Origin: Acidobacteriaceae bacterium
GTDB lineage: Bacteria > Acidobacteriota > Terriglobia > Terriglobales > Acidobacteriaceae
NCBI GenBank assembly: GCA_036510715.1
Contig: DATCDL010000362.1
Span: forward strand, 1 to 36,087
Direction of reading: 5' to 3'
Length of the DNA stretch: 36,087 bases
Positions 2,770 through 32,637 of this stretch are shown piece by piece (positions within the stretch are counted from its first letter, which is position 1; each line of letters opens with the position of its first letter). The notes under the pieces were generated by a model. It did not search any database. It was given only the letters and a program-made list of their open reading frames with translations, and was not told the origin of the DNA. A program made the position numbers and the translations under genes.

Positions 2770-3396
2770 ATGCTGACTTCGCAGAGTATTGACGCCGGAA
2801 CGCACGATTCCTCAGACTGGTGGGCGCTCTACACTCGCCATCAGCACGAAAAGACGGTGGCGACGATGCTGTCGGCAAAGGGCTTCGAGGTGTTTCTGCC
2901 ACTCTACGAGTCAACGCGGCGCTGGAAAGACAGAAGTAAACTGATTACGCTTCCGCTGTTCCCCTGCTATGTATTTCTCCGGGGAGGGCTCGATCGCCGG
3001 CTGCAGGTCGTGACGACCCCAGGAGTTCACATGATCCTGCTCCGCGGCGAATGCGTCGCGGTCATCCCGGAAGCTGAGATTCAGGCAATTCGAAGGGCAG
3101 TTGAAGGGCCCTTCCGCATAGAACCACATCCCTTCCTGAAGTGTGGCGAGCGGGTTCGCGTCACTCGAGGCCCCCTCGAGGGCGTCGAAGGGATTCTGGT
3201 TCGCAAGAAAAATCTGTATCGCCTGGTCCTTTCTGTGGACATGATGGCGAAGTCCGTTGCGATGGAAATTGATGCCACCGATGTGGAACCTGTGACAGCG
3301 CAGGGCTTCGCAGACGCGTTCCCGCCCGTTCAAGCCACAGGAGCGGGAAGGTTTGGTGAAACGGTACTTCATAGCGGCCAGCAAATAGCTAACTAA
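2770..3396 (+). CDS. UpxY/RfaH-like NusG-paralog transcription antiterminator
   Basis: The NGN domain is WWALYTRHQHEK..FLPLY...RRWKDR....PLFPCYVF and the KOW domain is GERVRVTRGPLEGVEGILV. RBS AAGGAGAGG at 2752-2760. It is the first gene of a polysaccharide operon. Confidence 0.92.
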   Translation: MLTSQSIDAGTHDSSDWWALYTRHQHEKTVATMLSAKGFEVFLPLYESTRRWKDRSKLITLPLFPCYVFLRGGLDRRLQVVTTPGVHMILLRGECVAVIPEAEIQAIRRAVEGPFRIEPHPFLKCGERVRVTRGPLEGVEGILVRKKNLYRLVLSVDMMAKSVAMEIDATDVEPVTAQGFADAFPPVQATGAGRFGETVLHSGQQIAN

Positions 3397-3419
3397 CGTT
3401 CGATACGAGCCGATCAGGT

Positions 3420-4208
3420 TTGAATGAACCCGGCCAGAAAATTGCATTACTGTCGCAGACCAGGGTATCCAGGATGCACCCTCACCAATTCACATCTCGC
3501 ATCGTGGCATCCTGTTCTGACTCGCTCAGAACTTCGACAGGATTTGTTTTGAAAGGTAACGCAACTCGCCTAATCAAATCAGGACTCCTCTTGACTGTTC
3601 TTTCCGGTTCTCTGCTGGGACAAGTGGCTACCCACAGTAAGGCTACTCGCGGATTCCCGGTAGCTACGATGGCGGCCTCGGCCGCACAGCCACTCGCACA
3701 ATCGGGCAACAAGCCACATGACGATAGCTTCGTCATTGGTAATGATGACGTCCTGGCGATCAATGTCTGGAAGGAATCTGACATCTCTCGGTCGATTCAG
3801 GTGCGATCGGATGGGAAAATTTCGTTGCCCTTGGTAGGAGAGGTTCAGGCAGCCGGTCGAACCCCCTTGCAACTCGAGCAGGATATTGCTGCGAAACTCC
3901 GAAACTACATCACCAACCCAGTAGTTACGATCATGGTCGAGCAGATTAACAGCGAGAAATTCAACATCCTTGGACAGGTCGTAAAGCCGGGATCATACTC
4001 ACTTACGCTGGCGCCAACGGTTGTGGATGCAATTGCGATTGCCGGTGGTCCCCGAGATTTCGCCAAGCAAAAAAGTATTTACATCCTGCGACAGAATGTT
4101 GGCGGCGGTGAGTTCCGGATTGTCTTCAATTACAAGAACTTCATTAAAGGAAAGAATTCACAGCAGAACGTCCAGCTTAGGCCGCACGACACAGTCGTCG
4201 TACCTTGA
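3420..4208 (+). CDS. Polysaccharide export (OPX/Wza-family) protein, short form with Poly_export and one SLBB domain; start codon uncertain
   Basis: PES motif FVIGNDDVLAINVW...VRSDGKISLPLVGEVQAAGRT; SLBB ILGQVVKPGSY...DAIAIAGG. It ends at LRPHDTVVVP with no C-terminal amphipathic helix. Confidence 0.9.
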   Translation: MNEPGQKIALLSQTRVSRMHPHQFTSRIVASCSDSLRTSTGFVLKGNATRLIKSGLLLTVLSGSLLGQVATHSKATRGFPVATMAASAAQPLAQSGNKPHDDSFVIGNDDVLAINVWKESDISRSIQVRSDGKISLPLVGEVQAAGRTPLQLEQDIAAKLRNYITNPVVTIMVEQINSEKFNILGQVVKPGSYSLTLAPTVVDAIAIAGGPRDFAKQKSIYILRQNVGGGEFRIVFNYKNFIKGKNSQQNVQLRPHDTVVVP

Positions 4209-5548
4209 AGGCTTTCATGCTTAAATGTGTATGTCTTTTTCTCGCAATACTCGTGGCGACCCCGGTCTGGTCTCAGGCCACACCGGATGAGGAAACCCGA
4301 ATGCTGATACCCCCGCCTGTGAGCGCTGAAGCCTATCCGACAACGGTCGGAGATGAAGAACGGTCAAATTATCTGGCCACCGGTTTGATCCTCAATACCG
4401 CATACGATGACAATATCCTCGCAGGCGGAAGTACCAATCCGATTCATGACGTTACTTACTCAGTTTGGCCCACGTTTACGCTGAACCTGACAACCCCACG
4501 GCAAAAGCGGACGCTGACGTATAGTCCAGGCTTCACCTTCTATCAGCACACCACCGCTCTCAATGCAGCAGATCAGAATGCAGCACTGAATTTTCAATAC
4601 CGTCTGAGCCCATATACGACCTTAAACATAAACGACTCCTTTCAGAAGATCTCGAATGTGTTCAATCAGCCCAATCCTCTTTCTGGGGTCGCGATATCGG
4701 GTTCAGCGCAGGCTCAACCAACAGGGGTTGTCGCTCCTTTCGCTGAACAACTCAGTAATACCGCGAATATGGGACTAAGTTATCAATTCAGTATGAATAG
4801 CATGATGGGCTTTGGAGGGATTATCACTCAAAGTCATTACCCCAATCCAGCCGAAGCCTCAGGTCTCTACGACTCGAACTCGCGCGGAGGTTCGGTTTTC
4901 TACAGCCAACGTTTGTCCAGTACCCAGTATGTTGGTTTGACCTATCAGTATTTAGAAAGTCAGAGTAAGCCTGTAAACGCCCAGGCCAATCCAGCGAATT
5001 CACAGACTGAGGTGCAGACCCATACCCTGTTGCCTTTTTACACGGTCTATTTGAATCCAAGGCTTTCCTTCTCTTTCTCAGGTGGTCCGCAACACGTTGA
5101 CGCCACCCAATCTCTCTCGGCACCGTTCCGCTCGTGGATGCCCTCTGCGATGGCAAGCATCGGATGGCAAAGGAGCCATACAAATCTTGTGGCCAGTTAC
5201 TCGCGAACGGTTACTGGGAGCACGGGCCTGTCTGGGGCGTTCACTTCGAGTAGCGCAAATGCCTCTGTACGCTGGCAGATGACACGCGCCTGGATCATAG
5301 GGTCTGCGGCGAGTTATGTGATCAACAAGAACGTTATCCATTTGTTCTCTCCGTATCTTCCGGGGGGACACACTGTTTCAGGAGCCGTCTCTGCTGAGCA
5401 CTCGATAAGCGATCACTTCAAGGCAGAACTTGGCTACGTCCGACTGCACCAGAGTTATAGCCGCATTGCGGTGATTTCCAACTCTCCTGATAGCAATCGC
5501 GAGTTCATCTCCGTCTCCTACCAGTTCACAAGGCCATTAGGAAGATGA
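4205..5548 (+). CDS. Putative outer-membrane beta-barrel protein, probable partner of the short OPX protein
   Basis: Signal peptide (LFLAILVATPVWS-Q). Ser/Thr/Tyr-rich alternating strands, early YDDNI motif and terminal strand FISVSYQF. Overlaps the OPX gene and the co-polymerase gene. Confidence 0.7.
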   Translation: MKAFMLKCVCLFLAILVATPVWSQATPDEETRMLIPPPVSAEAYPTTVGDEERSNYLATGLILNTAYDDNILAGGSTNPIHDVTYSVWPTFTLNLTTPRQKRTLTYSPGFTFYQHTTALNAADQNAALNFQYRLSPYTTLNINDSFQKISNVFNQPNPLSGVAISGSAQAQPTGVVAPFAEQLSNTANMGLSYQFSMNSMMGFGGIITQSHYPNPAEASGLYDSNSRGGSVFYSQRLSSTQYVGLTYQYLESQSKPVNAQANPANSQTEVQTHTLLPFYTVYLNPRLSFSFSGGPQHVDATQSLSAPFRSWMPSAMASIGWQRSHTNLVASYSRTVTGSTGLSGAFTSSSANASVRWQMTRAWIIGSAASYVINKNVIHLFSPYLPGGHTVSGAVSAEHSISDHFKAELGYVRLHQSYSRIAVISNSPDSNREFISVSYQFTRPLGR

Positions 5549-7128
5549 TCATGGAAGAAACCTACGAGGAACAGAGCTCCGAAGGACTCGATATCCAGCG
5601 TTACCTACAGTTAGTCAAGCGCCACCATATCCACTTCCTGATACCGCTATTTCTGGGATGGCTTATGGTATGGGGTGCAAGCTGGGTTTTGCCGGCACGC
5701 TATAAGTCAAACACGCTGATCCTAGTGGAGCAGCCCACGATGCCGAAAAATTATGTCGAGTCAAATGTCAACGACGATTTGCAGAATCGACTTCAAAGTA
5801 TTACGCAACAGATTCTGAGCCGCACCCGCCTTCTTCTGATCATTGATAAGTTGCATCTCTACGGCGACAGTCGACGTCACCTCACTCCAGATGAAAAAGT
5901 CGAACTCATGCGCAAAGACATAGACATCGTGCTCGTGCGTGACTCTCACGATGACCAGATCACAGCATTCAAAATCAGCTATTCGACTCGTGATTCTCAT
6001 GTTGCTCAGCAGGTAACTCGCGAATTGTCGAGCCTGTTTATCACGGACAATTTGCAAGTACGCCAGCAACAGTCCGAAGCCACAACAAAGTTTCTCGAGA
6101 GCCAGTTGGAAGATGCGCGAGCGAGCCTTGCCGACCAGGAAGCGAAGGTTCGAGATTTCAAAGGGAAGCATGAAGGTGAATTGCCTTCTCAGGAAGCGAG
6201 CAACCTCCAAATTCTCAGCGGCCTTCAGGCGCAGCTACAGAACGAACAGGATACTCTCAACACCGCAAAACAGCAGCGGGTCTATCTCCAGACACTCATA
6301 GAGCAATACCGAACTCTCCATTCGAACCCTGGGAGTGCCGACAGTACGCCGACTGGCGATCAGAACATCGATCGACTAAAGTCAAAGCTCGCAGACCTTA
6401 GGTCTCGCTACACCGACAATTACCCGGAAGTCGAGAACCTGAAAGACGAGATAACCAAGGCCGAAAGGACGAGAGACACCATCAATGCTGAGCCGAAGAC
6501 ACTACGCAATGGTGTGAGACAGTTCGACGCAACAGATGCTTCAAAGAATTCGGCGGCCTTGCAACTGCAAGGCCAGTTACAAGCCAACCAGGTAGAGATT
6601 GCGAATCGCGGGCAAGCAATTACTGAGCTAAAAGCAAGAGTCAACGGCTATCAGGATCGCTTGAACACTGAACCGGCGAGCGAGGAGCAGTTAGCAGATC
6701 TGACCCGTGGCTATGATCAATCCAAGGCTAATTACGACGATCTGTTAAAGAAGGAAAACGAATCGGAGATGGCGACTAGCATGGAACAAATGCAGCAAGG
6801 TGAGCGGTTCAGCATCCTTGATCCACCTAGCTTACCGTTGAAGCCGGAATTTCCTAACCGTCTTAAATTCTGTGGCGCCGGGTTGGGTCTCGGCCTCGTT
6901 TTGGGCCTCATTGTGGCGGGTGGATTTGAATATATGGATGACCGTTTGCATAGTGAGAAGGAAATAAAGCTCCTGCTTCCAGTAGCGATCCTATCGGAAA
7001 TTCCTGAGATTGTGAGTCCATTGGATGAACGAATCAGTAAGAAAAGAATGGTCTTGGGATGGACCATGGCTGCATTAGCCTTCGCTGCCATTCTGGCTGG
7101 TTCTGCGGTCAGCTATCTACACGATTAG
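5545..7128 (+). CDS. Polysaccharide co-polymerase / chain-length determinant (GumC/Wzc N-terminal part)
   Basis: N-terminal TM, then LPARYKS..LILVE and ILSRTRL, a long coiled coil, the FSILDPPSLPLKPEFPNR motif and C-terminal TMs. Confidence 0.9.
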   Translation: MIMEETYEEQSSEGLDIQRYLQLVKRHHIHFLIPLFLGWLMVWGASWVLPARYKSNTLILVEQPTMPKNYVESNVNDDLQNRLQSITQQILSRTRLLLIIDKLHLYGDSRRHLTPDEKVELMRKDIDIVLVRDSHDDQITAFKISYSTRDSHVAQQVTRELSSLFITDNLQVRQQQSEATTKFLESQLEDARASLADQEAKVRDFKGKHEGELPSQEASNLQILSGLQAQLQNEQDTLNTAKQQRVYLQTLIEQYRTLHSNPGSADSTPTGDQNIDRLKSKLADLRSRYTDNYPEVENLKDEITKAERTRDTINAEPKTLRNGVRQFDATDASKNSAALQLQGQLQANQVEIANRGQAITELKARVNGYQDRLNTEPASEEQLADLTRGYDQSKANYDDLLKKENESEMATSMEQMQQGERFSILDPPSLPLKPEFPNRLKFCGAGLGLGLVLGLIVAGGFEYMDDRLHSEKEIKLLLPVAILSEIPEIVSPLDERISKKRMVLGWTMAALAFAAILAGSAVSYLHD

Positions 7129-7140
7129 GTTCAGCTCCCT

Positions 7141-8130
7141 ATGTACAAAGCATTCTTTAATCTAACGCGCAATCCATTCGAGCTCACACCTAATCCCACT
7201 TGCTTTGTCCCGACCAAGCGGCACAGCGAAGCGCTGACGGCGCTTTACTATGGCATACGGCAACACAAGGGTTTTGTTGTGTTGACTGGAGAGGTGGGCA
7301 CCGGAAAGACCCTTCTGCTCCGGTGTTTGCTCGCGCTCTTAAAGGAGAGCAAAGATATTGCCTACGCATATCTATTTAATGGGCGGCTTTCTCCTACTGA
7401 GTTCCTACAGTACATTGTCTCCGACTTCAGGCTTCCGGTTACCGGTAAAAACAAAAGCGATCTATTGTTTGATCTCGGTCAGTTCTTAGGCTCGCGAGGC
7501 TCACAGAAAATGACTACCGTGCTCATAGTAGATGAGGCACACCATTTGTCCGAGGACATTCTTGAGGAACTCCGTCTTCTATCGAACCTTGAAACAGACG
7601 ATGACAAATTGTTGCAGATTGTATTGGTGGGACAGCCCGAACTTGACGAGAAGCTGGATTCTGTCGGACTTAGACAACTCAAACAAAGAATCGCGGTTCG
7701 CACGCAGCTTGGTTCGCTGGATGCTGAGGAGACGAAGCGATACATCGAGCAGCGATTGCAGATTGCTGGAGCAGACTTATCCGCTGATCCACTATTCTCT
7801 GCTCAAACCATTACGGCAGTGCATCGCCATTCGAAAGGCCTGCCGCGCCTGATTAACACAATTTGCGACAATGCCCTGATGACCGCCTATGCGAGAGGAC
7901 TGCAAAGCGTCACTCCGGAAGTCATAGGAGATGTGGCAAAAGAGTTTCGCCTCGATATGGTTGGCCCGCCTGACGCTGCAAGAAGCAAGCTTTCCAGTGA
8001 GATGGATGTCCAACGGATCACAAACCTGCTGCTTGATTTGTACGCAGCCATGCGACGACCAATCGCAAGCGATACAGACTTGGGCGCATCTGCAGCCATC
8101 GAAGTGAGCAAACATGAGCCATATATTTGA
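7141..8130 (+). CDS. ExeA-family AAA ATPase (similar to the ATPase associated with EPS/PEP-CTERM loci)
   Basis: MYKAFFNLTRNPF start, Walker A GEVGTGKT, Walker B LIVDEAH, LVGQPEL, LRQLKQRI and GLPRLINTICDNAL. Confidence 0.92.
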   Translation: MYKAFFNLTRNPFELTPNPTCFVPTKRHSEALTALYYGIRQHKGFVVLTGEVGTGKTLLLRCLLALLKESKDIAYAYLFNGRLSPTEFLQYIVSDFRLPVTGKNKSDLLFDLGQFLGSRGSQKMTTVLIVDEAHHLSEDILEELRLLSNLETDDDKLLQIVLVGQPELDEKLDSVGLRQLKQRIAVRTQLGSLDAEETKRYIEQRLQIAGADLSADPLFSAQTITAVHRHSKGLPRLINTICDNALMTAYARGLQSVTPEVIGDVAKEFRLDMVGPPDAARSKLSSEMDVQRITNLLLDLYAAMRRPIASDTDLGASAAIEVSKHEPYI

Positions 8131-9112
8131 CGCACTACAAAGATCGGAAACTGAAAGCTCTGGTATAGACTTGTCGGCGCTGCCGGGAGTGACTGTGCTG
8201 CTGCAGCGCGTAGAACGTCAAGCAGCTTCGAAATGGGAAGCGGCGGCTCTGTCTAAGGAGTCTGGGGCGGCGGAAACCACAGAGACCGAGAAGCCATTCA
8301 GCTCAATAGCGGTGCAGCCAGTGGCGAAGGAACCTGAACATTCAGCCAGCGAGCTTTCTCAGCCCGATGAACAGTCCGCTCCGTTCGGCCAATTCGGGTC
8401 CCTGCAAGTCTCGCTCGATTCTCAGAGCCGGCTACTCAGTCTCACGGACAGCGATAGCCCAACAGCGGAAGCCTTCCGACTTCTAGGGGTGCGATTGCGA
8501 CATCTCCGTCGGCAGCGGTTGCTTAAGACGGTGCTGATAACGAGCACAATTCCGCAAGAAGGCAAGAGTCTAGTCGCTGCGAACCTGGCCTGCACTCTTG
8601 CCCTAAGAACTCATGAAAAAATCCTGCTGCTAGAAGGAGACCTGCGACGTCCGTCTCTATCGCAGAAGTTCGGGCTCGGGAGGAATCCTGGTCTCTGTGA
8701 ATGTCTGCAGGGCGCGGCCAGTCTAAGGGCTAATATCTACCAACTCGAAGGCCTGAACCTCTGGATTCTTCCGGCGGGAAGCACTCCGAGCAATGCGCAG
8801 GAACTCCTGCAATCAGGAAGACTGTCTGCGCTGATGGATGAGTTGGCCACATGGTTTGATTGGATCGTCATCGATTCTCCTCCCGTGTTGCCGTTGGCTG
8901 ACACAAGCGTCTGGATGCGGTTGGCCGATGGAGTCCTTCTCGTTACGAGGCAGGGAACTACGGAGAAGCGGCAGTTACAGAGGGGACTCGAAGCACTCGA
9001 CCATAAGAAACTGATCGGTGCGTTAGTGAATGGCTCCACGAATGCAGCTGACAGCAGCTACTACTACAGCCAAGCGCCTGCCCCGCAATCGGATGGGGTT
9101 TTAGCGAAATGA
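8114..9112 (+). CDS. CpsD/CapB-family bacterial tyrosine kinase
   Basis: AEAFRLL, Walker A TSTIPQEGKS, A' EGDLRRP, Walker B IVIDSPP and a C-terminal Tyr cluster SSYYYS. Confidence 0.92.
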   Translation: MSHIFDALQRSETESSGIDLSALPGVTVLLQRVERQAASKWEAAALSKESGAAETTETEKPFSSIAVQPVAKEPEHSASELSQPDEQSAPFGQFGSLQVSLDSQSRLLSLTDSDSPTAEAFRLLGVRLRHLRRQRLLKTVLITSTIPQEGKSLVAANLACTLALRTHEKILLLEGDLRRPSLSQKFGLGRNPGLCECLQGAASLRANIYQLEGLNLWILPAGSTPSNAQELLQSGRLSALMDELATWFDWIVIDSPPVLPLADTSVWMRLADGVLLVTRQGTTEKRQLQRGLEALDHKKLIGALVNGSTNAADSSYYYSQAPAPQSDGVLAK

Positions 9113-9304
9113 CTGACTTTGATTGGGAGCCTGTCTCTTATCGTCTAGTCTCCGAACTTGCGATTTGTAGATCCCTACCTACGCCACCCATCGCAATCAG
9201 ATGTTTAATGTTGCCTCAGAAATGATACGGACACAAGCAGGCCAGGAGCTGTTGTCATTAGTGGCCAGCGAATAGTGAAGTGACCGTCTCGAGAGGAGTT
9301 ATTT

Positions 9305-10459
9305 GTGACTATGTTACGTATAGATAAAGCTTCAAATTCAGCTGATCCTTTACTCGCGCAGTTAGGTGCTCAAGAGCGCGACATACTGAACCAAGAAACC
9401 TTTAAGCGCATGATTGCTGTCGAGCGCAAAAGGACGGAGCGTTCAAGAGAACCCTTCTTGCTTATGCTGCTGGAGCCAGGAAATCGTCAGGTTTCGGAAA
9501 AGAACGGGAAGGCTCTCGACAAGATGCTGTCTGTGCTGCTGCTATCCATCAGGGAGACAGACGTAATCGGTTGGTACAAAGACCAGGCAGTTGTTGGTGT
9601 GATATTTACAGGACTCGCGAGTGATGACAAGAACTCGATCCTCAGCGCTATCCTCAGCAGGGTCAGCAACGCGCTAAGAGATCGGTTGACACCGGACCAA
9701 TTCAATCAAGTCAGCATCTCCTTTCACTTCTTTCCCGATGACTGGGATCAAGATACCCCCGGGCGTCCAAGCAATTTGACTCTATATCCAGATCTCGTGA
9801 GCTCCGATAGGGGCAAATATTCCCTGTTGCGAATTAAGCAAGCGATAGATATTCTTGGCAGTTCGCTCATGCTGATCCTTTGCAGCCCTCTCTTTCTCGT
9901 GGTAGCACTAGCGATCAAAGCGTCATCCAAAGGCTCAGTGCTCTTTAGACAACAGCGGGTCGGACAGTACGGTCAAAGCTTTACATTTCTCAAATTTCGT
10001 TCGATGCATGTCGACAATGATGAAACCGTTCACAAAGAGTATGCAACGAAATTGATCGCTGGTGAGGCGGACGGTAGACACTCGGATAGGAATGGTGATC
10101 GCGTATTCAAGCTCACGAATGATACGAGGGTTACCCGAGTGGGGAAGTTTTTGCGACGAACCAGTCTGGATGAACTGCCGCAGCTAGTGAATGTTCTAAA
10201 AGGAGATATGTCACTCGTTGGCCCTCGGCCGGCGCTTCCGTACGAGGTGGCCGCTTACCAAACGTGGCACCGCCGTCGGTTATTACAGGTCAAGCCAGGC
10301 ATAACTGGCTTGTGGCAAGTGACTGGCCGAAGCAGGGTAAAGTTTGACGAAATGGTTCGGCTGGATCTGCAATATGCAACGTCGTGGTCTCCATTGCTGG
10401 ATATTAAGATCCTCATGCATACTCCTCGCGCGGTGATCCTAGGCGCAGGCGCCTATTGA
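9305..10459 (+). CDS. Priming phosphoglycosyltransferase (bacterial sugar transferase) with an N-terminal degenerate GGDEF-like domain
   Basis: C-terminal motifs [35 protein letters not shown] and [10 protein letters not shown]. The N-terminus follows the GGDEF pattern. RBS GAGGAG at 9293-9298. Confidence 0.9.
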
Positions 10460-10844: not shown

Positions 10845-10998
10845 ACGTCTTGTCGGATTATTATGGCAACGGCTGTTGAGCTAAAGAGCAAGGTGAGCAC
10901 GAAGCAGACGAAGCGGAAGTTCCTATTGCTGTATTGGACTCTTCTTTCTCCGACACGCATTCCCTTCATCCGCAATTGTGGAGATTGGTGAAAATATA

Positions 10999-11997
10999 AT
11001 GAATTTTGGTGTCATAGGCTATGGCTACTGGGGGCCAAATGTTGTGAGAAACCTCGCCAGTCTGGAGGACTCCCAGGTGCTCACAATAGCGGAGATGAGT
11101 CCCGTTGCGCGTGAGCGCGCACAGAAGGCTTATCCGGGAATCCATGTAACGCCAGATGCCTCAGACGTATTCTTGTCAACGGAAATAGACGCCGTCGCTG
11201 TCGTCACTCCGGTCTGGACGCACTATGAGCTGGCAAAAGCTGCATTGCAGAACGGCAAGCATGTGTTCGTTGAAAAGCCATTCACCAGCAATGTTGCCCA
11301 GGCTGAGGAATTGATCGACCTAGCCCAGAAGAAGAATCTCAAGATCATGGTGGATCACACGTTCTTATTTACAGGGGCCGTAAAGAAAATATGGAAATTG
11401 CTGGAGGAAGGGACTCTTGGCAAGCTCTATTACTACGATGCTACGCGCGTCAACCTAGGCCTTTTCCAGCACGACATCAATGTCCTATGGGATCTTGCAC
11501 CGCATGATCTCTCCATCATGGACTACCTCATCAAAGGAAGTCCCGAGGCGATCGTTGCGACCGGCCAAAAGCATCTGAATGGCCACGAAGATGTAGCTTA
11601 TATGACACTATATTTCCCGGAGAAGGTCATAGCTCATATCAATGTCAACTGGCTCTCTCCGGTCAAGGTCAGGACTACTCTCATCGGCGGAGAGAGACGA
11701 ATGCTGGTCTGGAATGATTTAGAAGCGGACGAAAAAGTAAAGGTGTATGACAGGGGAGTGGACATCTCCAGCCGCGAGGGCGTCTACGAGTTGTTAGTTA
11801 ACTACCGGTCTGGCGATATGTGGGCTCCACAACTGGAACAGACCGAGGCCCTGCGACAGGAACTCGCCTACTTCGTGGATTGCATCTCAAGTGGCGAGGA
11901 GCCGCTCAACAACGGATGCGCTGGCCTGAGGGTGATTAAGATGCTGGAAGCAGCCAGCGAGTCAATAAACAAGCGAGGAGCTCTGGTCTATCTATGA
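10999..11997 (+). CDS. Gfo/Idh/MocA oxidoreductase (WbpB/WlbA-like nucleotide-sugar 3-dehydrogenase)
   Basis: GVIGYGYWG, HVFVEKP and WDLAPHD motifs. ATG 10999 is preferred over GTG 10978. It is adjacent to an acetyltransferase and an aminotransferase. Confidence 0.88.
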   Translation: MNFGVIGYGYWGPNVVRNLASLEDSQVLTIAEMSPVARERAQKAYPGIHVTPDASDVFLSTEIDAVAVVTPVWTHYELAKAALQNGKHVFVEKPFTSNVAQAEELIDLAQKKNLKIMVDHTFLFTGAVKKIWKLLEEGTLGKLYYYDATRVNLGLFQHDINVLWDLAPHDLSIMDYLIKGSPEAIVATGQKHLNGHEDVAYMTLYFPEKVIAHINVNWLSPVKVRTTLIGGERRMLVWNDLEADEKVKVYDRGVDISSREGVYELLVNYRSGDMWAPQLEQTEALRQELAYFVDCISSGEEPLNNGCAGLRVIKMLEAASESINKRGALVYL

Positions 11998-12491
11998 ACC
12001 CCTACAACTGCATCTCGGACGACGTCAAGTTGGGCACAAACGTCCGATTATCAAAATTTATCAACCTGTACGGATGCGAGATTGGGGACGAGACGAGGAT
12101 TGGTGCATTCGTGGAAATTCAAAAGAATGCTATCGTCGGCAAATGTTGCAAGATCTCCAGTCACACATTTATCTGCGAGGGTGTTGTCATCGAGGATAAC
12201 GTATTTATCGGCCACGGAGTGACGTTCATTAATGATAGCTATCCGCGAGCAACGACTCTTGAAGGTAATCTACAAGCCGAGGCTGACTGGAAAGTCGAAC
12301 ATACAGTCATAAGGAAGGGTGCATCCATTGGCTCAGGTACTACGATTCTTTCCGAAACTGACATAGGCGAAAATGCCATTGTGGGTGCTGGCAGCGTTGT
12401 TACCAAAGATGTCCCACCCAATGCTATCGTGGCCGGCAATCCGGCTAGGGTCCTGCGTTACATCGAAGACGCTGCAAGAAGGTCACAATGA
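11994..12491 (+). CDS. Hexapeptide-repeat N-acetyltransferase (WbpD/WlbB-like)
   Basis: NLYGCEIG..TRIGAFVEIQK, CKISSHTFICEGV, FINDSYPRA and VGAGSVVTKDVP...VAGNPAR. Confidence 0.9.
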   Translation: MNPYNCISDDVKLGTNVRLSKFINLYGCEIGDETRIGAFVEIQKNAIVGKCCKISSHTFICEGVVIEDNVFIGHGVTFINDSYPRATTLEGNLQAEADWKVEHTVIRKGASIGSGTTILSETDIGENAIVGAGSVVTKDVPPNAIVAGNPARVLRYIEDAARRSQ

Positions 12492-13735
12492 ATATTTCCA
12501 ATAGCATTCCCTTTCTTGATCTAGTTACTCCGCATGTGGAGTTTGAACGAGAACTCACTGGAGTATTTCGTCGAGCTCTGCACACGGCCGATTTCGTCGG
12601 CGGTCGTGTGGTGGCAGAATTTGAGAAGGCATTCGCAACCTTCTGCAGTGCTAACCATGCGGTTGCAGTTAGCAGCGGCACGGATGCGCTACGCTTCGCC
12701 ATTGTGGCGTGCGGAATTCAACCGGGCGACGTAGTGGTGACTGTGCCGCACACCTTTATTGCCACCACGGAGGCTATTTCGCAAGCTAGTGCCGTCCCGG
12801 AATTCGTCGACATCGATGAGCATACCTACAACCTATCGGTCGATATGCTACAAAAGTTCCTTGAAAAACAGTGTACGCGAGATAAAGCAGGGAAGCTCAT
12901 CAGTCTTCGGAGTGGCCGGCCTGTAACCGCAGTTGTGCCAGTGCATCTCTATGGCCAAATGGCCGACATGGATTCGATCCTCAGTCTGGCTACCGAGTAT
13001 GGCCTTACCGTGATTGAGGATGCTTGTCAGGCTCACGGCGCGGAATACTTCTCGAGGAAACACGATTGTTGGATGAAGGCGGGATCGATGGGCAGGGCAG
13101 CCGCGTTCAGTTTCTACCCTGGCAAGAACCTGGGAGCATGTGGAGAGGGCGGTGCAGTAACCACTAACGATACCAATCTAGCTGAAAAAATCATGATGCT
13201 TCGTGATCATGGCCAGGTAAAAAAATACTATCACGAGGTGGAAGGCTACAACGGAAGATTAGACACGATACAAGCCGGTCTCTTGAATGTAAAGCTTCCT
13301 CATCTTAGAGATTGGAATGTGCAGCGTCGCGAACGGGCATGTGAATACAGCCGCCTTCTGTCAAGGAATGAAAGCCTCCGTCTGCCGTTTGAACCTTCCT
13401 GGTCTCGCGCTGTCTATCACCTCTATGTCATTCGAACTGAAGATCGTACGGGCTTGATGGAGCATTTGGGGAAAGCCGGCATCGGCACGGGAATACACTA
13501 TCCAGTTCCCCTGCACTTGCAGAAAGCCTATACGTCCCTGAACTACGGTCTGAGAGATTTCCCAGTTGCGGAACGTGTTGCCTCCGAAATTGTCTCTCTG
13601 CCGATGTTCCCGCATCTCACGTCAACACAGCAAGCCATTGTGGCCAACGAGATTCTCGCCTTCATTTCGAAGACTGGTCGTAAGCGGACGGAAAGGGCAG
13701 AGAACACGTTGGTCTCAGGGGAGAGAGTCGCATGA
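12488..13735 (+). CDS. DegT/DnrJ/EryC1/StrS aminotransferase (WbpE/WlbC-like)
   Basis: IPFLDL, SSGTDAL, PVHLYGQ, IEDACQAHGA and FSFYPGKNLGACGEGG (PLP lysine). Confidence 0.93.
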   Translation: MNISNSIPFLDLVTPHVEFERELTGVFRRALHTADFVGGRVVAEFEKAFATFCSANHAVAVSSGTDALRFAIVACGIQPGDVVVTVPHTFIATTEAISQASAVPEFVDIDEHTYNLSVDMLQKFLEKQCTRDKAGKLISLRSGRPVTAVVPVHLYGQMADMDSILSLATEYGLTVIEDACQAHGAEYFSRKHDCWMKAGSMGRAAAFSFYPGKNLGACGEGGAVTTNDTNLAEKIMMLRDHGQVKKYYHEVEGYNGRLDTIQAGLLNVKLPHLRDWNVQRRERACEYSRLLSRNESLRLPFEPSWSRAVYHLYVIRTEDRTGLMEHLGKAGIGTGIHYPVPLHLQKAYTSLNYGLRDFPVAERVASEIVSLPMFPHLTSTQQAIVANEILAFISKTGRKRTERAENTLVSGERVA

Positions 13736-13900: not shown

Positions 13901-15127
13901 GTGAAGAAAAGAGTCGCCACTGGAGTCTGTATCGTTGTCGAAAACCTACCGGTACCTCTTGATAGGCGCGTATGGAAGGAGGCTTGCGCACTGCGTGATG
14001 CGGGGTATCGTGTATCTGTAATCTGTCCCAAAGGAAAGGGCTTCTCGGCAGGATACGAGGCTCTCGATGGAATCGATATCTACCGCCATCGCACATGGGA
14101 GGCTTCTAGCAAAGCCGAGTATATCTTGGAGTATGGTGTGGCTCTTGCAGCTGAGTTTTGTTTAGCATTGAAAGTCTTCGCGCGGACCAGATTCCGCATT
14201 CTGCAGGCATGCAACCCTCCAGACACAATTTTCCTGATAGGACTGCTTCTGAGGCCTCTCGGTGTCCGATTTATCTTCGACCAACACGACCTTGGTCCAG
14301 AGCTCTTCGAGGCAAAGTTCGGCAAACGCAGTGGCACGCTTCTTAGGCTAGTTCGATTGCTGGAGTTGTGCTCGTTCCGAGCGGCGAGCACCTGCATCGC
14401 GACAAATGAATCGTTCAAGGAGATTGCCATCACCCGAGGGGGCAAGCGCCCGGAAGTTGTCTTTGTTGTACGGAACTGTCCTGATCTAGCGACATTCCAG
14501 CGACCCCAGAGTCGAAACGGCAACGGATTCGGCAGATCGTACCTTGTAGTCTATGTGGGCTTCATGGGGACGCAAGATGGCCTGGATTTGTTGCTCGATG
14601 CTATCGAACACATTGTGAAACGCGAGAATCGGCAAGATACCCATTTTCTTCTCGTTGGGGGAGGAACCGTACTTCCCGAGTTGCGACAAGTGATTGCCAA
14701 GAAGGATTTGAGCCCCTTTGTTACACTCACCGGTCAGGTTTCCCATGACGAAGTTGTTGCCTTTCTCTCTGTCGCAGACGTGGGAGTGGCACCCGATCCC
14801 AAAAATGCGATGAATGATAACTCGTCGATGATCAAGATTTTTGAATACATGGCGTTCGGATTGCCGATTGTACTCTTCGACTTGAAGGAGGGACGGCGCA
14901 CCGCAGGAGCCGCAGCGCTTTACGCCGTTCCGAACGACCCCATCAATTTCGCTGACCAGATCGGTCGGTTGCTCAACTCCAGAGAACTCCGTGAAGAACT
15001 TGGTGAATGTGGCCGAAGGAGAATTGAAGAGAGCCTCAACTGGGATATAGAGAAAGCGTCACTGATTCGAGCATATGAAACAGCGCTCCAGTCTGGCCCG
15101 GTCTTGGGTGAAGCGGGGAGCCGCTAA
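13901..15127 (+). CDS. Glycosyltransferase family 4 (start probably GTG 13901; the ORF extends to 13769)
   Basis: IVVENLPVPLDRRVWKEA, ACNPPD, FDQHDL.PEL, YVGFMGTQDG and KIFEYMAFGLPIV. Confidence 0.9.
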   Translation: MKKRVATGVCIVVENLPVPLDRRVWKEACALRDAGYRVSVICPKGKGFSAGYEALDGIDIYRHRTWEASSKAEYILEYGVALAAEFCLALKVFARTRFRILQACNPPDTIFLIGLLLRPLGVRFIFDQHDLGPELFEAKFGKRSGTLLRLVRLLELCSFRAASTCIATNESFKEIAITRGGKRPEVVFVVRNCPDLATFQRPQSRNGNGFGRSYLVVYVGFMGTQDGLDLLLDAIEHIVKRENRQDTHFLLVGGGTVLPELRQVIAKKDLSPFVTLTGQVSHDEVVAFLSVADVGVAPDPKNAMNDNSSMIKIFEYMAFGLPIVLFDLKEGRRTAGAAALYAVPNDPINFADQIGRLLNSRELREELGECGRRRIEESLNWDIEKASLIRAYETALQSGPVLGEAGSR

Positions 15128-17280
15128 TGCCCACCAGCGATTTCCATATCCACCTGTTCACGGATAACTCGCGATCAGAACCATCTCGAGGATGGCGTAG
15201 TCTCAACGAACATGCGAGAGGTGCCGATGCCGCAAAATATCGCCGGATCATAAATCTGTACAGATTTTTCGTATGGGCCGTTCTCTTTTTTACCCTGACG
15301 TTTTCTGTGAGGTGCTATTCGGCGGAGATCGTCTTTATTCATTCAGGTGGTAGTCCTTCCCCTGAGGAGCACGAACTTGAACTCGCGACCCAGTTTTATG
15401 GATTGAGTCTGAAGACCGTCACAGCCAGCACCGAACAAATCGCCCTCGCGTTTGGAGCCATTCAGACGGATACAACTCTGGCGGTCGCAATTGAGGCAGA
15501 CACACTAGCCAAAGTTAATCAAAAGGCACTGCTGCGAGCCCTGCGTCGAGGGAGTGAGAGCAGTGTGCCTTTGCTGATTCTTGGAGTGACACCAGAGACG
15601 GACCAAACTCTCCTAAGCGCATGGTCAGGAAGTACTGTAATCGGGGCCGGGTCTCTACGTAGCTCATCGGGGCTGCGTTACTCAGTTGGCAACGAGTCAG
15701 CAGTGACGCGACAACTAACCGGCATCCAATTCCCCTTCCCGGGTGATAAAAGCTTCTATCTTCACATCGAGAATCAAAGCAATTCTAAAGCAATCATGGC
15801 TGTCTGGAAGGATCATCAATCCTTTCCAATCTTCATTGAGACGGATGTCCACGGACAAAAGATTTTTTTGCTTTGCAGGACGCTCTTTCCAGTAAACAAC
15901 ACAGCTAATTGGACGGCCGACAACACAGAGGACGCATTTGAGAAGATCGTCCCGGTGATGATGTTCACAAAGTATTCTGCGGGCGAACGAGGTTGGCACG
16001 CTCTCCATCATTACGCAAACCTAACCATCGACGATCCATGGCTCCGCGAGCCCTACGGAAGCCTCAGCTATCAGGGTCTCCTCAAGGAGATGGAGAAACA
16101 CAATTTCCACACGACCATCGCCTTTATACCCTGGAATTTCGATCGGAGCCAACCTGGCGTTGTTTCTCTCGTGCGCAACCATCCTGACAGATTCTCGATC
16201 TGCATTCATGGAGACACTCATGCGCACAAGGAGTTTACAGACTACGGAAGCAAGCCGTTGAATGTTCAAGTGGCAGCTCTTAAGCAATCAGTGGCCAGAA
16301 TGGAGAAATTTCAAGCGTATTCAGGAATTCCTTACGATAGGGTGATGGTCTTTCCCCACAGCATCGCACCAGAACAAACACTCGAAGCTCTGAAGGCCAA
16401 TGGTTACCTCGCTACTATCAATTCTCAGAATGTTCCTATGGACTCAGTTAAGCCCACGGACCTCCTGTTTGCCATGCGATCCACCACGCTTTTGTTTGGC
16501 AATTTTCCGAGTATTATTCGCTATCCAGCCGCACTACCGACTCACGGCTATGCTGTAGCGATTGAAGATTTTCTTGATAACCCATTGTTCTATTACGCGC
16601 ATCAGGACTTCTTCGCAAAGGGCATCGAAGCATTCGACGGATTGGCAGATGAAGTGAACAGTGTTGAGCCGGACACTAAATGGTCTAGCCTTGGCGACAT
16701 AGTGAAGCATCTGTACTTGTTGAGACTGAGAGAAGATTCAAACTATGATGTGCTTGCGTTGTCGAGCAGCCTACTTCTGGATAACACCTTCGGACGCGGT
16801 GTGGCCTTTTATATCAAGAGAGCAGAATCCAGCCCGACGGCCATCATTTCGGTGAGCGTGGACGGTCGACATATTCCCTTCCAACTACACGAGGGATATC
16901 TGAGCCTTAACGTGTTCGTCCCAGCGGGTGAGACTCGTAGCATTGTGATCCAGGATGGGAACACCACGGACTTTTCCTCAATAAGCACCTCGAAGAAATC
17001 TCTGTATGTTTATGTTCTCCGAAGGATCTCCGACTTCAGAGATATAACGTTATCAAGAGTCCAAGTCGGGCGAGCGTTTACAGCTTTGTATTACACCCAT
17101 AGAGGGTCCGCTGAGCTGCTGATTCTGGGTGGGCTCGGACTCATAGTGTTCGGTACATTTGGAGGCTGGAGGCTGTTTGTGATGGTAAGAAGAAAGAACG
17201 TCGTCCAGATAGCCCACAAACACTCTTCTGATCGACAACCTCGCGACGGAGGGGAAATGATTAGCCAGTCCCCCAAGTGA
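15127..17280 (+). CDS. Membrane-anchored periplasmic protein with a polysaccharide-deacetylase-like (NodB-type) domain
   Basis: Hydrophobic segments near both ends. The motifs LTIDDP, ICIHGDTH and VFPH parallel the CE4 motifs TFDDG, H(S/T)xxH and RxPY. Confidence 0.6.
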   Translation: MPTSDFHIHLFTDNSRSEPSRGWRSLNEHARGADAAKYRRIINLYRFFVWAVLFFTLTFSVRCYSAEIVFIHSGGSPSPEEHELELATQFYGLSLKTVTASTEQIALAFGAIQTDTTLAVAIEADTLAKVNQKALLRALRRGSESSVPLLILGVTPETDQTLLSAWSGSTVIGAGSLRSSSGLRYSVGNESAVTRQLTGIQFPFPGDKSFYLHIENQSNSKAIMAVWKDHQSFPIFIETDVHGQKIFLLCRTLFPVNNTANWTADNTEDAFEKIVPVMMFTKYSAGERGWHALHHYANLTIDDPWLREPYGSLSYQGLLKEMEKHNFHTTIAFIPWNFDRSQPGVVSLVRNHPDRFSICIHGDTHAHKEFTDYGSKPLNVQVAALKQSVARMEKFQAYSGIPYDRVMVFPHSIAPEQTLEALKANGYLATINSQNVPMDSVKPTDLLFAMRSTTLLFGNFPSIIRYPAALPTHGYAVAIEDFLDNPLFYYAHQDFFAKGIEAFDGLADEVNSVEPDTKWSSLGDIVKHLYLLRLREDSNYDVLALSSSLLLDNTFGRGVAFYIKRAESSPTAIISVSVDGRHIPFQLHEGYLSLNVFVPAGETRSIVIQDGNTTDFSSISTSKKSLYVYVLRRISDFRDITLSRVQVGRAFTALYYTHRGSAELLILGGLGLIVFGTFGGWRLFVMVRRKNVVQIAHKHSSDRQPRDGGEMISQSPK

Positions 17281-25190: not shown

Positions 25191-25342
25191 ACCATGACTG
25201 AATATGACATTTGAGGTTATTCATTCAGCTTTCCTTTCCGCTGGGCGTCTTACGTCGCCTCCCTTGATCAGGGAAAAGATCTTACGGCTAACTGGTTTTG
25301 GTCAGTAACGAAGGCTGGCCGTTTATACGATGGACAAATCAT

Positions 25343-26722
25343 ATGGAACCCGATCACTACCGCTTCGGAGGTGGCTCAGCTACCACCGTGCTTCATCCCA
25401 TAGTGGCGGTGGCGATGCTGCTTGCGATCATCCTTATTCTGCGCCTGCCACTCAAGAGGGTATTAGCACCACTGCTGCTTGCGATCTTCCTTATTCCAAA
25501 AGGGCAAGTTATAGTTCTGGCCGGCATACACTTAAATGCTTATCGAGTCATCCTGCTGGCGGGACTGGCTCGATGGGCAATCTCGAGACGATCGTCTCCA
25601 CTGGCTGGCGGGTTCAATTCCATTGACTGGTTGTTCACTTTGGCGGCCGTCTCTTTCTTCATCATTTTCTCACTCCAGTACATGGCGACACAGGCACTGA
25701 TTAAGGCTCTCGGGGATCTACTGGATGCGATGGCCGGCTATTTTGTCCTACGATTCCTGATCCGCGACCGGGAGAGTATCCGAGAAACAGTCAGAGTCTT
25801 TGCGCTCATTGCCATTATCGTAGGAATCTGCATGCTCAATGAGCAACGCACGGGGGTGAATGTCTTCGGGCTGCTTGGCGGCACTCTAAGCATCTCCGAA
25901 ACGCGGAACGGAGCCATTCGGTCGATGGGCCCGTTTTTACATTCGATACCCGCCGGAGCGTTTGGGGCAACACTTGTCCCATTGCTCATCTGGCTTTGGT
26001 CGGATGGGAAATTCCGAATATTAGCTGCACTCGGATTACTTGGGGCAACGGCCATGGCCGTCACTTGCCACTCCTCTACCGTGCTTGGTTGCTATGTTGC
26101 GGGTATTTTTGGCCTTTGCATGTGGCCTCTCCGTAACCAGATGCGCGTAATCCGATATGGACTTTTAATAGTGGTAATAGGCCTGCACTTGATCATGAAA
26201 GGCCCCGTCTGGTCGCTCCTGGAGCACATAGATTTGACAGGTTCATCGGAGAGTTTTCATCGTTATCAGCTCGTCGATACCTTCATTAGACATTTTAATG
26301 AGTGGTGGTTGTTGGGCACTCAGAACAATGGTTCCTGGGGTTGGGAAATGGCTGATACTTCCAATGAGTATGTGACATATGGCGTGGAGGGTGGGCTGCT
26401 AACTCTTGTTCTATTCATAGCTCTCATTTCGAAGTGCCTTGGAAAGCTTGGGACTAAACGAAAAATCGTCGCGGGCCACCGCGGTGAGGAATGGCTCTTC
26501 TGGTGCCTTGGGACTGCTATGTTTGCGCACTTGGTGGTCTTCATTGGAATTGATTATTTTGACCAAATGCTATTTGCTTGGTTTGCATTGTTGGCCATAA
26601 TCGCCACGGGCGTCTCTATACCCACAAAGGGGGGGAGACCAAGACTGATTACCCGAGGAGACCGTGACAGCCAGTTTGCCAACCACGAGTTCGACGAAGC
26701 ACTCCAAGTGTCCGGGTCTTGA
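25343..26722 (+). CDS. Wzy polymerase / O-antigen-ligase-like polytopic membrane protein
   Basis: About 11-12 hydrophobic segments; periplasmic motifs RNGAIRSMGPFLHSI, SSESFHRYQL, WWLLG and NEYV.YGVEGGL. ATG 25343 is the preferred start. Confidence 0.75.
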   Translation: MEPDHYRFGGGSATTVLHPIVAVAMLLAIILILRLPLKRVLAPLLLAIFLIPKGQVIVLAGIHLNAYRVILLAGLARWAISRRSSPLAGGFNSIDWLFTLAAVSFFIIFSLQYMATQALIKALGDLLDAMAGYFVLRFLIRDRESIRETVRVFALIAIIVGICMLNEQRTGVNVFGLLGGTLSISETRNGAIRSMGPFLHSIPAGAFGATLVPLLIWLWSDGKFRILAALGLLGATAMAVTCHSSTVLGCYVAGIFGLCMWPLRNQMRVIRYGLLIVVIGLHLIMKGPVWSLLEHIDLTGSSESFHRYQLVDTFIRHFNEWWLLGTQNNGSWGWEMADTSNEYVTYGVEGGLLTLVLFIALISKCLGKLGTKRKIVAGHRGEEWLFWCLGTAMFAHLVVFIGIDYFDQMLFAWFALLAIIATGVSIPTKGGRPRLITRGDRDSQFANHEFDEALQVSGS

Positions 26723-28104: not shown

Positions 28105-29571
28105 GTGAGCGTCTCCCACCGACTTAAAATTGTGGCCAACCGCGTCTTACAGGGCGAGAGCCTTAGGGCCAAAGCGGCGCGTGGCGGCGCGTGGCTGGGA
28201 AGCGGCAGCTTTGCTGAGCAGGTGAGCCGCTTTGCCCGGAACATGTTGCTGACTCGGTTGCTGGCTCCAAGCGCATTTGGCGCCATGGCGATTGTATTGT
28301 CCTCGTCTTCCCTTGTATCGTCCTTTTCCGATGTTGGGCTCTGGCCAGCGGTGATTCGGAACCCGCGCGGAGGAGACGACGCGTACCTCAATGCTGCGTG
28401 GTGGCTGGGCATCGGACGTGCGATTGGCATCTATGCTTTGATCTTTGCAGCGGCCCCTTTGGTCTCCCGCTTTTACGGAATGCCAGACCTGTCCATGTTG
28501 CTCCGAGTGGCTTTATTGAGCATCGTCCTCGATGGCATGATAAGTCCCCGTTCCAAACTTGCGCAAAAGGAGATGAAGTTCGGGAAATGGGCATTCATCA
28601 GCAATGGCGGCGGAATTTGCGGCGTAGTCCTAACAGTAATTCTCAGCTTTGTTCTTCGAGATGTGAGGGCGCTCGCGATCGGTTATTGCTGCGAGAATGC
28701 ATTTCGGTGTCTATTCTCTTATATTCTGTTCCCTGGTTTGCCGTCTCTCAAGTGGGACAGCCACGCTATTGGTGACCTTCTAACATTTTCAAAAGGGATG
28801 CTCGGTTTATCTTTTCTCAACTTGATTTTTGCGCGCGCCGACATCTTTGTGTTGGGGAAACTATATTCCCCTGAAGCATTGGGAATTTACACGATGGCTG
28901 TGTACCTGGTTCAGACCCCCTCGAGCTTCCTGATTAACATACTCGGTGTAACTCTCTTACCTGCATTCTCGCATGTCCGGGAGGACACCGAGCGCGGTAA
29001 CCGCATCCTTTCGGAGGTAACGTCCTGGATTATCCTTCTTGGGTTGCCGGCGGTGGTGATGATTTGGCAATGTGGGTCGTCTCTCCTGACGGTCACTTAT
29101 GGGGCTCGCTATGCCGCGGCTGCCGGGGCGCTAGCCGTTGCGGCAGGGGTGGCCCTCCTAAATACACTAAACTCCCTGGTGACCAATCTGTTTTACGCCG
29201 CCGGGCGCCCTGCACTTCATCGCCGCGCCGTAGGCGCATCTGCAGTTGTCATGATGATCGCGATTTATCCCGCCTGTAAATACATGGGATCGGTAGGAGG
29301 CCAATTCGCAGCGCTCCTCGCGATCTCTGCCAGCTATGCCCTTCAGATTGTGAGAGCGCGTAGTATCACGGGCTTATCTGTTCTTCAATACGGAAGGGCC
29401 GTTGTGCCAGCCATGCTGGTAACTGCAGTGATTCTTATCGTCGGAGTTGGCGAGCGTTTTCTAGGATTGGCAACCAGGCCGCTAGCTAACATTGCCGTTG
29501 CCGCTGCCGCCTGCCTGGTAGCTTATGCCCTGAGCGTGCCGGCTTTCATGAGAATTAGGGAGATCGCATAA
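28105..29571 (+). CDS. wzx: Wzx-type oligosaccharide flippase
   Basis: LLTRLLAPSAFG, FSDVGL..AVI and ADIFVLGKL....LGIYTMA motifs, with about 12-14 TM segments. Confidence 0.88.
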   Translation: MSVSHRLKIVANRVLQGESLRAKAARGGAWLGSGSFAEQVSRFARNMLLTRLLAPSAFGAMAIVLSSSSLVSSFSDVGLWPAVIRNPRGGDDAYLNAAWWLGIGRAIGIYALIFAAAPLVSRFYGMPDLSMLLRVALLSIVLDGMISPRSKLAQKEMKFGKWAFISNGGGICGVVLTVILSFVLRDVRALAIGYCCENAFRCLFSYILFPGLPSLKWDSHAIGDLLTFSKGMLGLSFLNLIFARADIFVLGKLYSPEALGIYTMAVYLVQTPSSFLINILGVTLLPAFSHVREDTERGNRILSEVTSWIILLGLPAVVMIWQCGSSLLTVTYGARYAAAAGALAVAAGVALLNTLNSLVTNLFYAAGRPALHRRAVGASAVVMMIAIYPACKYMGSVGGQFAALLAISASYALQIVRARSITGLSVLQYGRAVVPAMLVTAVILIVGVGERFLGLATRPLANIAVAAAACLVAYALSVPAFMRIREIA

Positions 29572-32616: not shown

Positions 32617-32637
32617 GCATCCAGAGGAGGAAACGCG

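Follow-up and report, generated by a model that had tools for sequence, protein, structure and literature searches.

The window, by which we mean the whole 36,087-nucleotide stretch of Acidobacteriaceae DNA that was analysed, carries a polysaccharide cluster in which one open reading frame joins a predicted degenerate GGDEF domain to a monotopic phosphoglycosyl transferase (PGT). The features on which the analysis draws are as follows, in window coordinates.

2770..9112, + strand: export and assembly genes upstream of the fusion gene (Pfam and NCBIfam, several of the NCBIfam matches lying below cut-off).
9295..9298, + strand: GGAG, resembling a ribosome-binding site, 6 nt before the GTG of the fusion gene (sequence read directly).
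9305..10459, + strand: fusion gene, degenerate GGDEF domain plus monotopic PGT (open reading frame of 384 amino acids with a GTG start).
9380..9799, + strand: predicted degenerate GGDEF-fold domain, residues about 26-165 (structure searches and profile comparisons).
9422..9445, + strand: E40-RKR43-TER46-S47, end of the first helix (structural offsets and sequence alignment).
9551..9562, + strand: R83-E-T-D86, RxxD motif of the putative primary I-site (AGGGAGACAGAC; RxxD present in 128 of 133 representatives).
9572..9592, + strand: W90-Y91, with Trp where cyclases have Arg, followed by K92-D-Q-A-V96, a variable remnant of the GGDEF motif.
9659..9661, + strand: R119, candidate third arginine of the primary I-site (register uncertain by one helical turn).
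9836..10438, + strand: monotopic PGT catalytic domain (Bac_transf, PF02397, residues 178-378, E 2.6e-67).
10978..13735, + strand: dehydrogenase, acetyltransferase and DegT aminotransferase genes directly downstream of the fusion gene (Pfam and NCBIfam).
25298..26722, + strand: candidate Wzy polymerase gene (10 hydrophobic segments; no Pfam match of its own).
28105..29571, + strand: Wzx-type flippase gene (Polysacc_synt_3, E 1.9e-56; MOP flippase models).

The genes at 2770-9112 encode a UpxY/NusG-like antiterminator, a Wza-type exporter, a 447-aa protein, a chain-length co-polymerase, an XrtA-type AAA ATPase and a tyrosine autokinase. This setting recurs among 57 related loci, with a co-polymerase (48/57), an AAA ATPase (43/57) and a tyrosine kinase (48/57) upstream, and a dehydrogenase (49/57), an acetyltransferase (39/57) and a DegT aminotransferase (46/57) downstream. 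The trio at 10978-13735 likely makes an amino-sugar nucleotide and may supply the substrate of the PGT; by comparison with WbpB/D/E, we take it to resemble pathways for 3-amino or 2,3-diacetamido sugars. An earlier, sequence-only reading of this DNA had assigned the locus to a Wzx/Wzy pathway. Wzx, Wza, co-polymerase and tyrosine kinase bear this out, while Wzy is represented by the candidate at 25298-26722, which is probably a divergent Wzy: single homologs out of 37 weakly matched O-antigen_lig (E 0.0019) and Wzy_C (E 0.093), and the product itself matched no solved structure. The candidate belongs to a polytopic membrane family of at least 670 sequences with many invariant residues, and none of the 120 matches listed for it carries a Pfam annotation.

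Several other genes accompany the cluster. Upstream of it, positions 11-2029 encode a large Thr/Ser-rich protein with six choice-of-anchor D Ig-like repeats. Inside it, the segments 19363-21168 and 31939-34439 hold genes for an FkbH-domain protein, a heme-oxygenase-like protein and two exosortase-A-associated hydrolase-like products, hinting at acyl decoration of the polymer. Long open reading frames at 4205-5548, 15127-17280 and 23435-25060 matched neither Pfam nor NCBIfam; the first of them is flanked by Wza and the co-polymerase in 38/57 related loci and, as a guess, may encode an outer-membrane barrel. A search of the window and six loci yielded no Rfam family, c-di-GMP riboswitches included, and no ordinary cyclase gene lies within ~6 kb of the fusion in the 57 related loci; both results weigh against the c-di-GMP reading set out below.

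The reading frame at 9305-10459 contains the peptides quoted in the sequence-only reading, and its start position is occupied by V or M in 101 of 120 close homologs. No sigma-70-like promoter was found between 9050 and 11000. A structural model of the full-length protein (pLDDT 81.7, pTM 0.74) matched PglC (E 6e-14) and WbaP (E 1e-10) over one part and GGDEF domains over the other. The fusion architecture is real, conserved and without existing annotation.

The C-terminal domain retains the residues of a PGT: the D182-X12-P195 re-entrant helix motif, K230, R284, the D289-E290 dyad (10169-10174), R308 and D366, following the motif definitions (DX12P, K/R/R, Asp-Glu dyad) in section 8 of PMC12802240. 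The dyad and R308 are present in 79/79 homologs, and the other catalytic residues are invariant or nearly so. A fusion to a priming transferase, as the sequence-only reading had proposed, is thus upheld by the intact catalytic residues and the strong Bac_transf match; its term 'priming glycosyltransferase' was right as to the step and wrong as to the class, the enzyme being a phosphoglycosyl transferase and not a Leloir glycosyltransferase. The fusion protein has a single hydrophobic segment, residues 186-204, which lies within the PGT; the four-helix membrane bundle of large PGTs (WbaP, WcaJ, EpsZ) is absent, and NCBIfam large-PGT models matched only residues 175-384, below cut-off. Campylobacter PglC (8e37/8g1n) shares the catalytic core and all listed residues, with one re-entrant helix and no four-helix bundle. 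Judged by these sequence features, the enzyme is a monotopic PGT of the small type to which a further domain is fused.

The N-terminal region required structural and profile comparisons for its recognition. With the single sequence, no Pfam or NCBIfam model named the N-terminal 175 residues or reported a GGDEF match there, and a PDB search returned no GGDEF chain; FimF (E 0.0045) and other weak matches from that search were taken as chance given the structural searches. The query does not reach the gathering cut-off of PF00990, and 22 of the 113 alignment members match that model at E<=1 (best 0.003). A profile that included the PGT columns retrieved only PGT structures from the PDB. Residues 23-170 were modelled with AlphaFold2 from a 113-sequence alignment (mean pLDDT 83.8), and the model gave 41 Foldseek matches at E<=1e-3, every listed row of which is a GGDEF protein. 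In a wide structure search with VIA, the top 34 rows (Z 8.6-13.4) were all GGDEF proteins, the best with Z 13.4 and an rmsd of 2.4 over 117 aligned residues and PleD at Z 10.6, and the first unrelated fold appeared at Z 7.2. An Atlas structure search likewise returned GGDEF clusters (TM 0.76). Comparison of profiles by hhalign aligned the domain with ordinary GGDEF domains at probabilities of 92.6-96.5% (E 4.5e-7 and 8.8e-10), and a 38-row domain profile recovered GcbC (E 1.2e-5) and DosC (E 2.6e-5) among solved structures. The resemblance to GGDEF domains exceeds chance, and the domain is predicted to have the GGDEF fold. The pattern that the sequence-only reading had picked out by eye is therefore borne out by Foldseek, VIA and the profile comparisons, within the limits of a predicted model; it had placed the domain at 9305-9750, or residues 25-145, and its presence there holds, while its end moves to about 9800 (residues 26-165).

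The cyclase site itself has been lost. KDQAV (K92-V96) occupies the position of GG(D/E)EF, five residues (VIGWY) after RETD, exactly as had been read from the sequence, and the spacing from R83xxD86 to the motif is, in the alignment, that of WspR R242xxD245...GGEEF. Positions 92-96 vary freely across the domain family. The DxDxFKxxND...GHxxGD segment that binds GTP is replaced by a shorter, variable stretch at residues 58-70, and an acidic residue persists at the first metal-ligand position, 57, in 94/112 members but varies in distant ones. No GG(D/E)E-type or FKxxND motif occurs in any of 188 aligned rows, in agreement with the dead catalytic site proposed earlier; by sequence, the domain lacks what defines an active diguanylate cyclase.

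A further question is whether the allosteric I-site has been kept. In PleD this site comprises R359, D362 and R390 together with R313 of a partner domain (PMC7288161), and in WspR R242 and D245 together with partner-domain R198 (PMC2270323). R83 and D86 match PleD R359/D362 and WspR R242/D245. Structural offsets, on the assumption of no gap in the helix, align R43 with PleD R313 and R46 with WspR R198, and the sequence alignment agrees. The third primary arginine is placed less firmly: R119 falls on the PleD R390/PelD R402 column in both hhalign runs, HMMER alignments put it one turn later, and ungapped scores tie positions 119 and 123 for the R390 column.

These residues are strongly conserved. 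Among the 133 of 150 representatives that have residues at all four counted positions, R43 is kept in 131, R46 in 129 and RxxD in 128; R or K occupies position 119 in 130/131. The full set of five (R43, R46, R83, D86, R/K119) is found in 123/131 representatives, compared with 9/41 ordinary GGDEF domains in a background set drawn from two related genomes (G119, with all 27 of its GGDEF matches, and G169, with 14 of its 15 domains). Taken singly, RxxD is present in 33, R46 in 32, R/K119 in 24 and R43 in 19 of these 41 domains. RxxD alone is thus weak evidence in this lineage, and since RxxD and R46 are near-consensus in ordinary GGDEF domains, part of their conservation may be structural; the informative part lies in R43 and R/K119, which are variable in cyclases and near-fixed here. 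The sequence-only reading had rested its receptor proposal on RxxD: the motif is indeed conserved among homologs, its weight is reduced by the ordinary domains that also have it, and the larger residue set carries the case.

The alignments differ in composition, A1 holding 112 of the 150 representatives, chosen for coverage, and A3 holding 37 of 51 distant locus matches. The family derives from one ancestor and was collected by similarity, which favours conservation of these residues; mean pairwise identity in the 113-row family alignment is 39%. Across 38 domains taken from genomes, the most distant with 22% identity to the query, R43 is present in 37 and R46, R83 and D86 in all 38. The only invariant columns there are E40, R46, R83, D86 and W90, three of the five being I-site positions. 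All six arginine codons are used at R83 across loci, which indicates that selection acts on the protein. Five of the 133 representatives have lost RxxD. Two of these (P0144 and P0193) look like local frameshift errors yet were counted as losses, and in P0159 and P0220, which are 64% identical and probably reflect one event, R46 and RxxD were lost together. P0159, P0220 and P0198 are members in which part of RxxD is gone. F33, G98, P144, G89 and W90 are as conserved as the I-site residues and have no known ligand role; Y91 is conserved in 100/112 and Y161 in 72/95.

A near search returned 3494 proteins, and a representative search 1731 clusters at 50% identity, many of them fragments and with distant GGDEF matches also counted; family members are currently labelled just 'sugar transferase'. 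Within Acidobacteriota the domain is patchily distributed: of 401 genomes sampled from this phylum, 22 have it at E<=1e-13 and 27 at a looser cut. Named relatives belong to Acidobacteriaceae and other Acidobacteriota, and close homologs are present in the isolates Tunturiibacter psychrotolerans X4BP1 and T. lichenicola MP8S11. A plasmid search for the domain gave no match. Two records titled as other taxa were rejected as evidence of a wider range. For L047, titled Verrucomicrobiia, the phylum sample consists of the same genomes as that of the window's phylum, and the locus nests among Acidobacteriaceae rows in the domain tree; L058, titled Alphaproteobacteria, is a 1985-base contig, and none of 300 other genomes of its phylum matched. 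Both titles overstate the taxonomic range. The record title of L045 names a beta-proteobacterium, and an Atlas feature match to a Nitrospirota-led cluster (score 0.87) serves as a lead only.

Further copies of the domain occur in several arrangements. Another fused copy (L002, G000:C533:16312-19746), with a domain 52% identical and an RDTD motif, lies in a second, similarly ordered polysaccharide cluster of the genome from which the window comes; the open reading frame preceding that fusion presumably encodes a sigma-54-type AAA activator. In P0121, P0178 and P0189, two degenerate GGDEF domains stand in tandem before one PGT, and both copies have RxxD. Free-standing copies were found at L056:2306-2896, L059:2408-2968, L086:1438-2010, L087:1944-2303, L093:1300-1986, L094:1369-1896 and L094:534-986; most share a cluster with a fused copy, and several lie directly upstream of the fused gene or directly after the kinase gene. 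All seven keep the five I-site residues, and packing against a covalently attached PGT is therefore no explanation for their conservation. The free-standing copies fall in several places in the domain tree, whose deep branching is poorly resolved (18 of its 51 inner branches are starred) and which gives no order of events.

Some loci carry altered reading frames. A 905-aa open frame in L056:4363-7077 and in P0145 combines an amino-acid kinase with ACT domains, a degenerate GGDEF domain and a PGT; the L056 frame may be a real triple fusion or reflect a lost stop. In L059:4324-7062, three bases separate the end of a kinase-like open reading frame from the fusion frame. Split versions of the fusion gene occur in L014, L015, L039, L045 and L088, probably owing to sequencing frameshifts rather than real fission, and L039 and L045 have many split neighbours.

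A source of the proposed ligand appears to be available to these organisms. Each of the 22 fusion-bearing genomes examined for cyclases encodes PF00990 domains (these 22 being what remained of 26 other genomes once four weak matches were dropped), the best locus matching the strict catalytic pattern in 21 of the 22, and the window's own genome has six PF00990 matches. GGDEF genes are common, occurring also in 8 of 14 control genomes, and this co-occurrence is accordingly a necessary condition only.

Several characterised systems resemble parts of the fusion. The active cyclases PleD and WspR (1w25, 2wb4, 3bre, 3i5c) share the fold (Z 10.3-10.9) and the matching I-site residues, but use the site for product inhibition, whereas GG(D/E)EF and FKxxND are lost here. 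PelD (4dmz) is another parallel, having a dead GGDEF fold (Z 9.3, rmsd 3.7, 117 aligned), being encoded in a polysaccharide cluster and being missed by standard annotation; the spacing from RxxD to the later arginine is 36 residues here and 32 and 35 in two PelDs, the protein being known from Pseudomonas aeruginosa and Bacillus cereus. PelD from B. cereus binds c-di-GMP with a KD of 103 nM through R363, D366 and R395 (10.1101/768473). PelD differs in forming a subunit of its own, a membrane-anchored GAF-GGDEF protein that serves a synthase pathway, whereas the putative receptor described here lacks GAF and is fused to the priming PGT of a flippase pathway. The possibility that the fusion is a PelD orthologue was rejected because the protein has one hydrophobic segment only, in the PGT, and no matches to GAF or pel families. 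The GIL/GGDEF* region of E. coli BcsE is also a degenerate GGDEF domain, with a weaker structural match (Z 7.2-7.4). BcsE is an I-site receptor that boosts polysaccharide output, in this case cellulose secretion (PMC8892547), but is a soluble accessory subunit of a synthase complex, fused to no enzyme.

Direct control of initiating enzymes also has precedents. Regulatory fusions of PGTs are known, including receiver domains (cited second-hand in PMC12802240), and post-translational regulation of PGTs through other inputs is on record (PMC12802240, PMC10942596). In M. xanthus, the signalling module EpsW acts directly on EpsZ, the initiating PGT of a Wzx/Wzy exopolysaccharide pathway, and S. aureus CapM is an initiating PGT under direct control (both PMC12802240). 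EpsW-EpsZ pairs a phosphorylated free receiver domain with a large PGT, in contrast to the fused, putative second-messenger domain considered here. Both building blocks are thus of known kinds, and it is their combination that is new, not the category. The sequence-only reading had described this architecture as one not known to be characterised; in the literature covered, which lies outside the survey of monoPGT fusions (PMC7848588) that could already list it, we found no description of a GGDEF-PGT fusion. The Caulobacter holdfast pathway, which we take to be of Wzx/Wzy type, offers a further comparison. Its c-di-GMP effector HfsK acts post-translationally and is controlled by relocalisation (PMC5362036), but it is an acyltransferase working on the polymer rather than at the initiating step, with another binding site and no GGDEF domain.

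From the residue conservation, the predicted fold and the analogy with these receptors, we consider it slightly better than an even bet that c-di-GMP is bound at the I-site of the domain, which thereby controls the transferase fused to it. By this scheme, which follows PleD and WspR, a c-di-GMP dimer would bind R83, D86 and R119 of one domain, while R43 and R46 from another would complete the site. That both partner arginines are kept, and that tandem and free-standing copies exist, suggests such a cross-linked pair. Binding could either hold two transferase molecules together or turn the domain relative to the catalytic core, and would thereby govern the step at which sugar-1-phosphate is passed to undecaprenyl phosphate and exopolysaccharide synthesis begins. 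The partner surface could be supplied in trans by free-standing copies or in cis by tandem ones. Activation of the PGT would be likelier than inhibition, because c-di-GMP generally promotes exopolysaccharide. A fuller version, in which the priming PGT is itself the receptor, the messenger cross-links two dead GGDEF domains by way of the primary and the partner-arginine sites alike, so dimerising an otherwise monomeric small PGT and committing undecaprenyl phosphate to exopolysaccharide, and free-standing copies tune the response in trans, is offered tentatively and is a good deal less probable than the general proposal; small PGTs are described as functional monomers (PMC12802240).

Conservation of the same residues could arise in other ways. 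The arginines and aspartate might be retained because the fold or a protein partner needs them, in a ligand-free structural or interaction module with no role for c-di-GMP. The frequency of RxxD (33/41) and R46 (32/41) in ordinary GGDEF domains fits this idea, as do degenerate GGDEF domains with other roles, such as those of the FimX complex and YybT (PMC7288161); the fairly conserved tyrosines Y91 and Y161 are compatible with it too, given that the kinase CapB1 regulates a small PGT through phosphorylation (PMC12802240). But R43 and R/K119, near-fixed here, are kept in only 19/41 and 24/41 of the ordinary domains, and RxxD occurs in only 44-57% of GGDEF domains across Pfam (PMC3974145) and so is not needed for the fold. 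We regard a ligand-free module as unlikely, roughly on a par with, though a little ahead of, the idea that the domain binds c-di-GMP without changing catalysis and serves to dock or localise the PGT at the co-polymerase, kinase or AAA ATPase. Docking would suit the frequency of these three genes directly upstream in related loci and the free-standing copies that adjoin the kinase gene or precede the fused gene, and HfsK shows that c-di-GMP can act by relocalisation (PMC5362036). It is harder to reconcile with loci such as L034, L035, L049, L051 and L054, which lack these neighbours in range and yet keep the motif.

Lastly, the basic patch might bind another nucleotide (UMP, a UDP-sugar, cGAMP or ppGpp) and give feedback from product or substrate, in the manner of the accessory domain found in large PGTs. 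The accessory domain of WbaP has been assigned a role in nucleotide sensing, and WbaP is inhibited by UMP (PMC10942596); in the family described here, the acidic position 57, partly kept (94/112), lies beside the invariant W90. But distant members vary at position 57, the segment that binds GTP is gone and the conserved set coincides with the positions of a c-di-GMP I-site, and we hold this explanation to be quite improbable, well behind both of the preceding ones. Binding of c-di-GMP at the I-site with control of the attached PGT is therefore the reading that we prefer, with the modest confidence expressed above.

Post-translational control of Wzx/Wzy pathways is incompletely understood (PMC12802240, 2025), in contrast to synthase pathways, for which control by c-di-GMP is well described. 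Because the initiating PGT draws on limited supplies of undecaprenyl phosphate and nucleotide sugars, it is the natural control point. The analysis defines a domain family of thousands of sequences that had hitherto been without annotation. The 148-residue domain is predicted to be soluble, and its presence with the transferase in a single two-domain protein makes the question of c-di-GMP gating directly testable. Under the fuller version of the proposal, these Acidobacteriota would carry a second-messenger switch as part of the initiating enzyme itself, the first of its kind for a flippase-type pathway.
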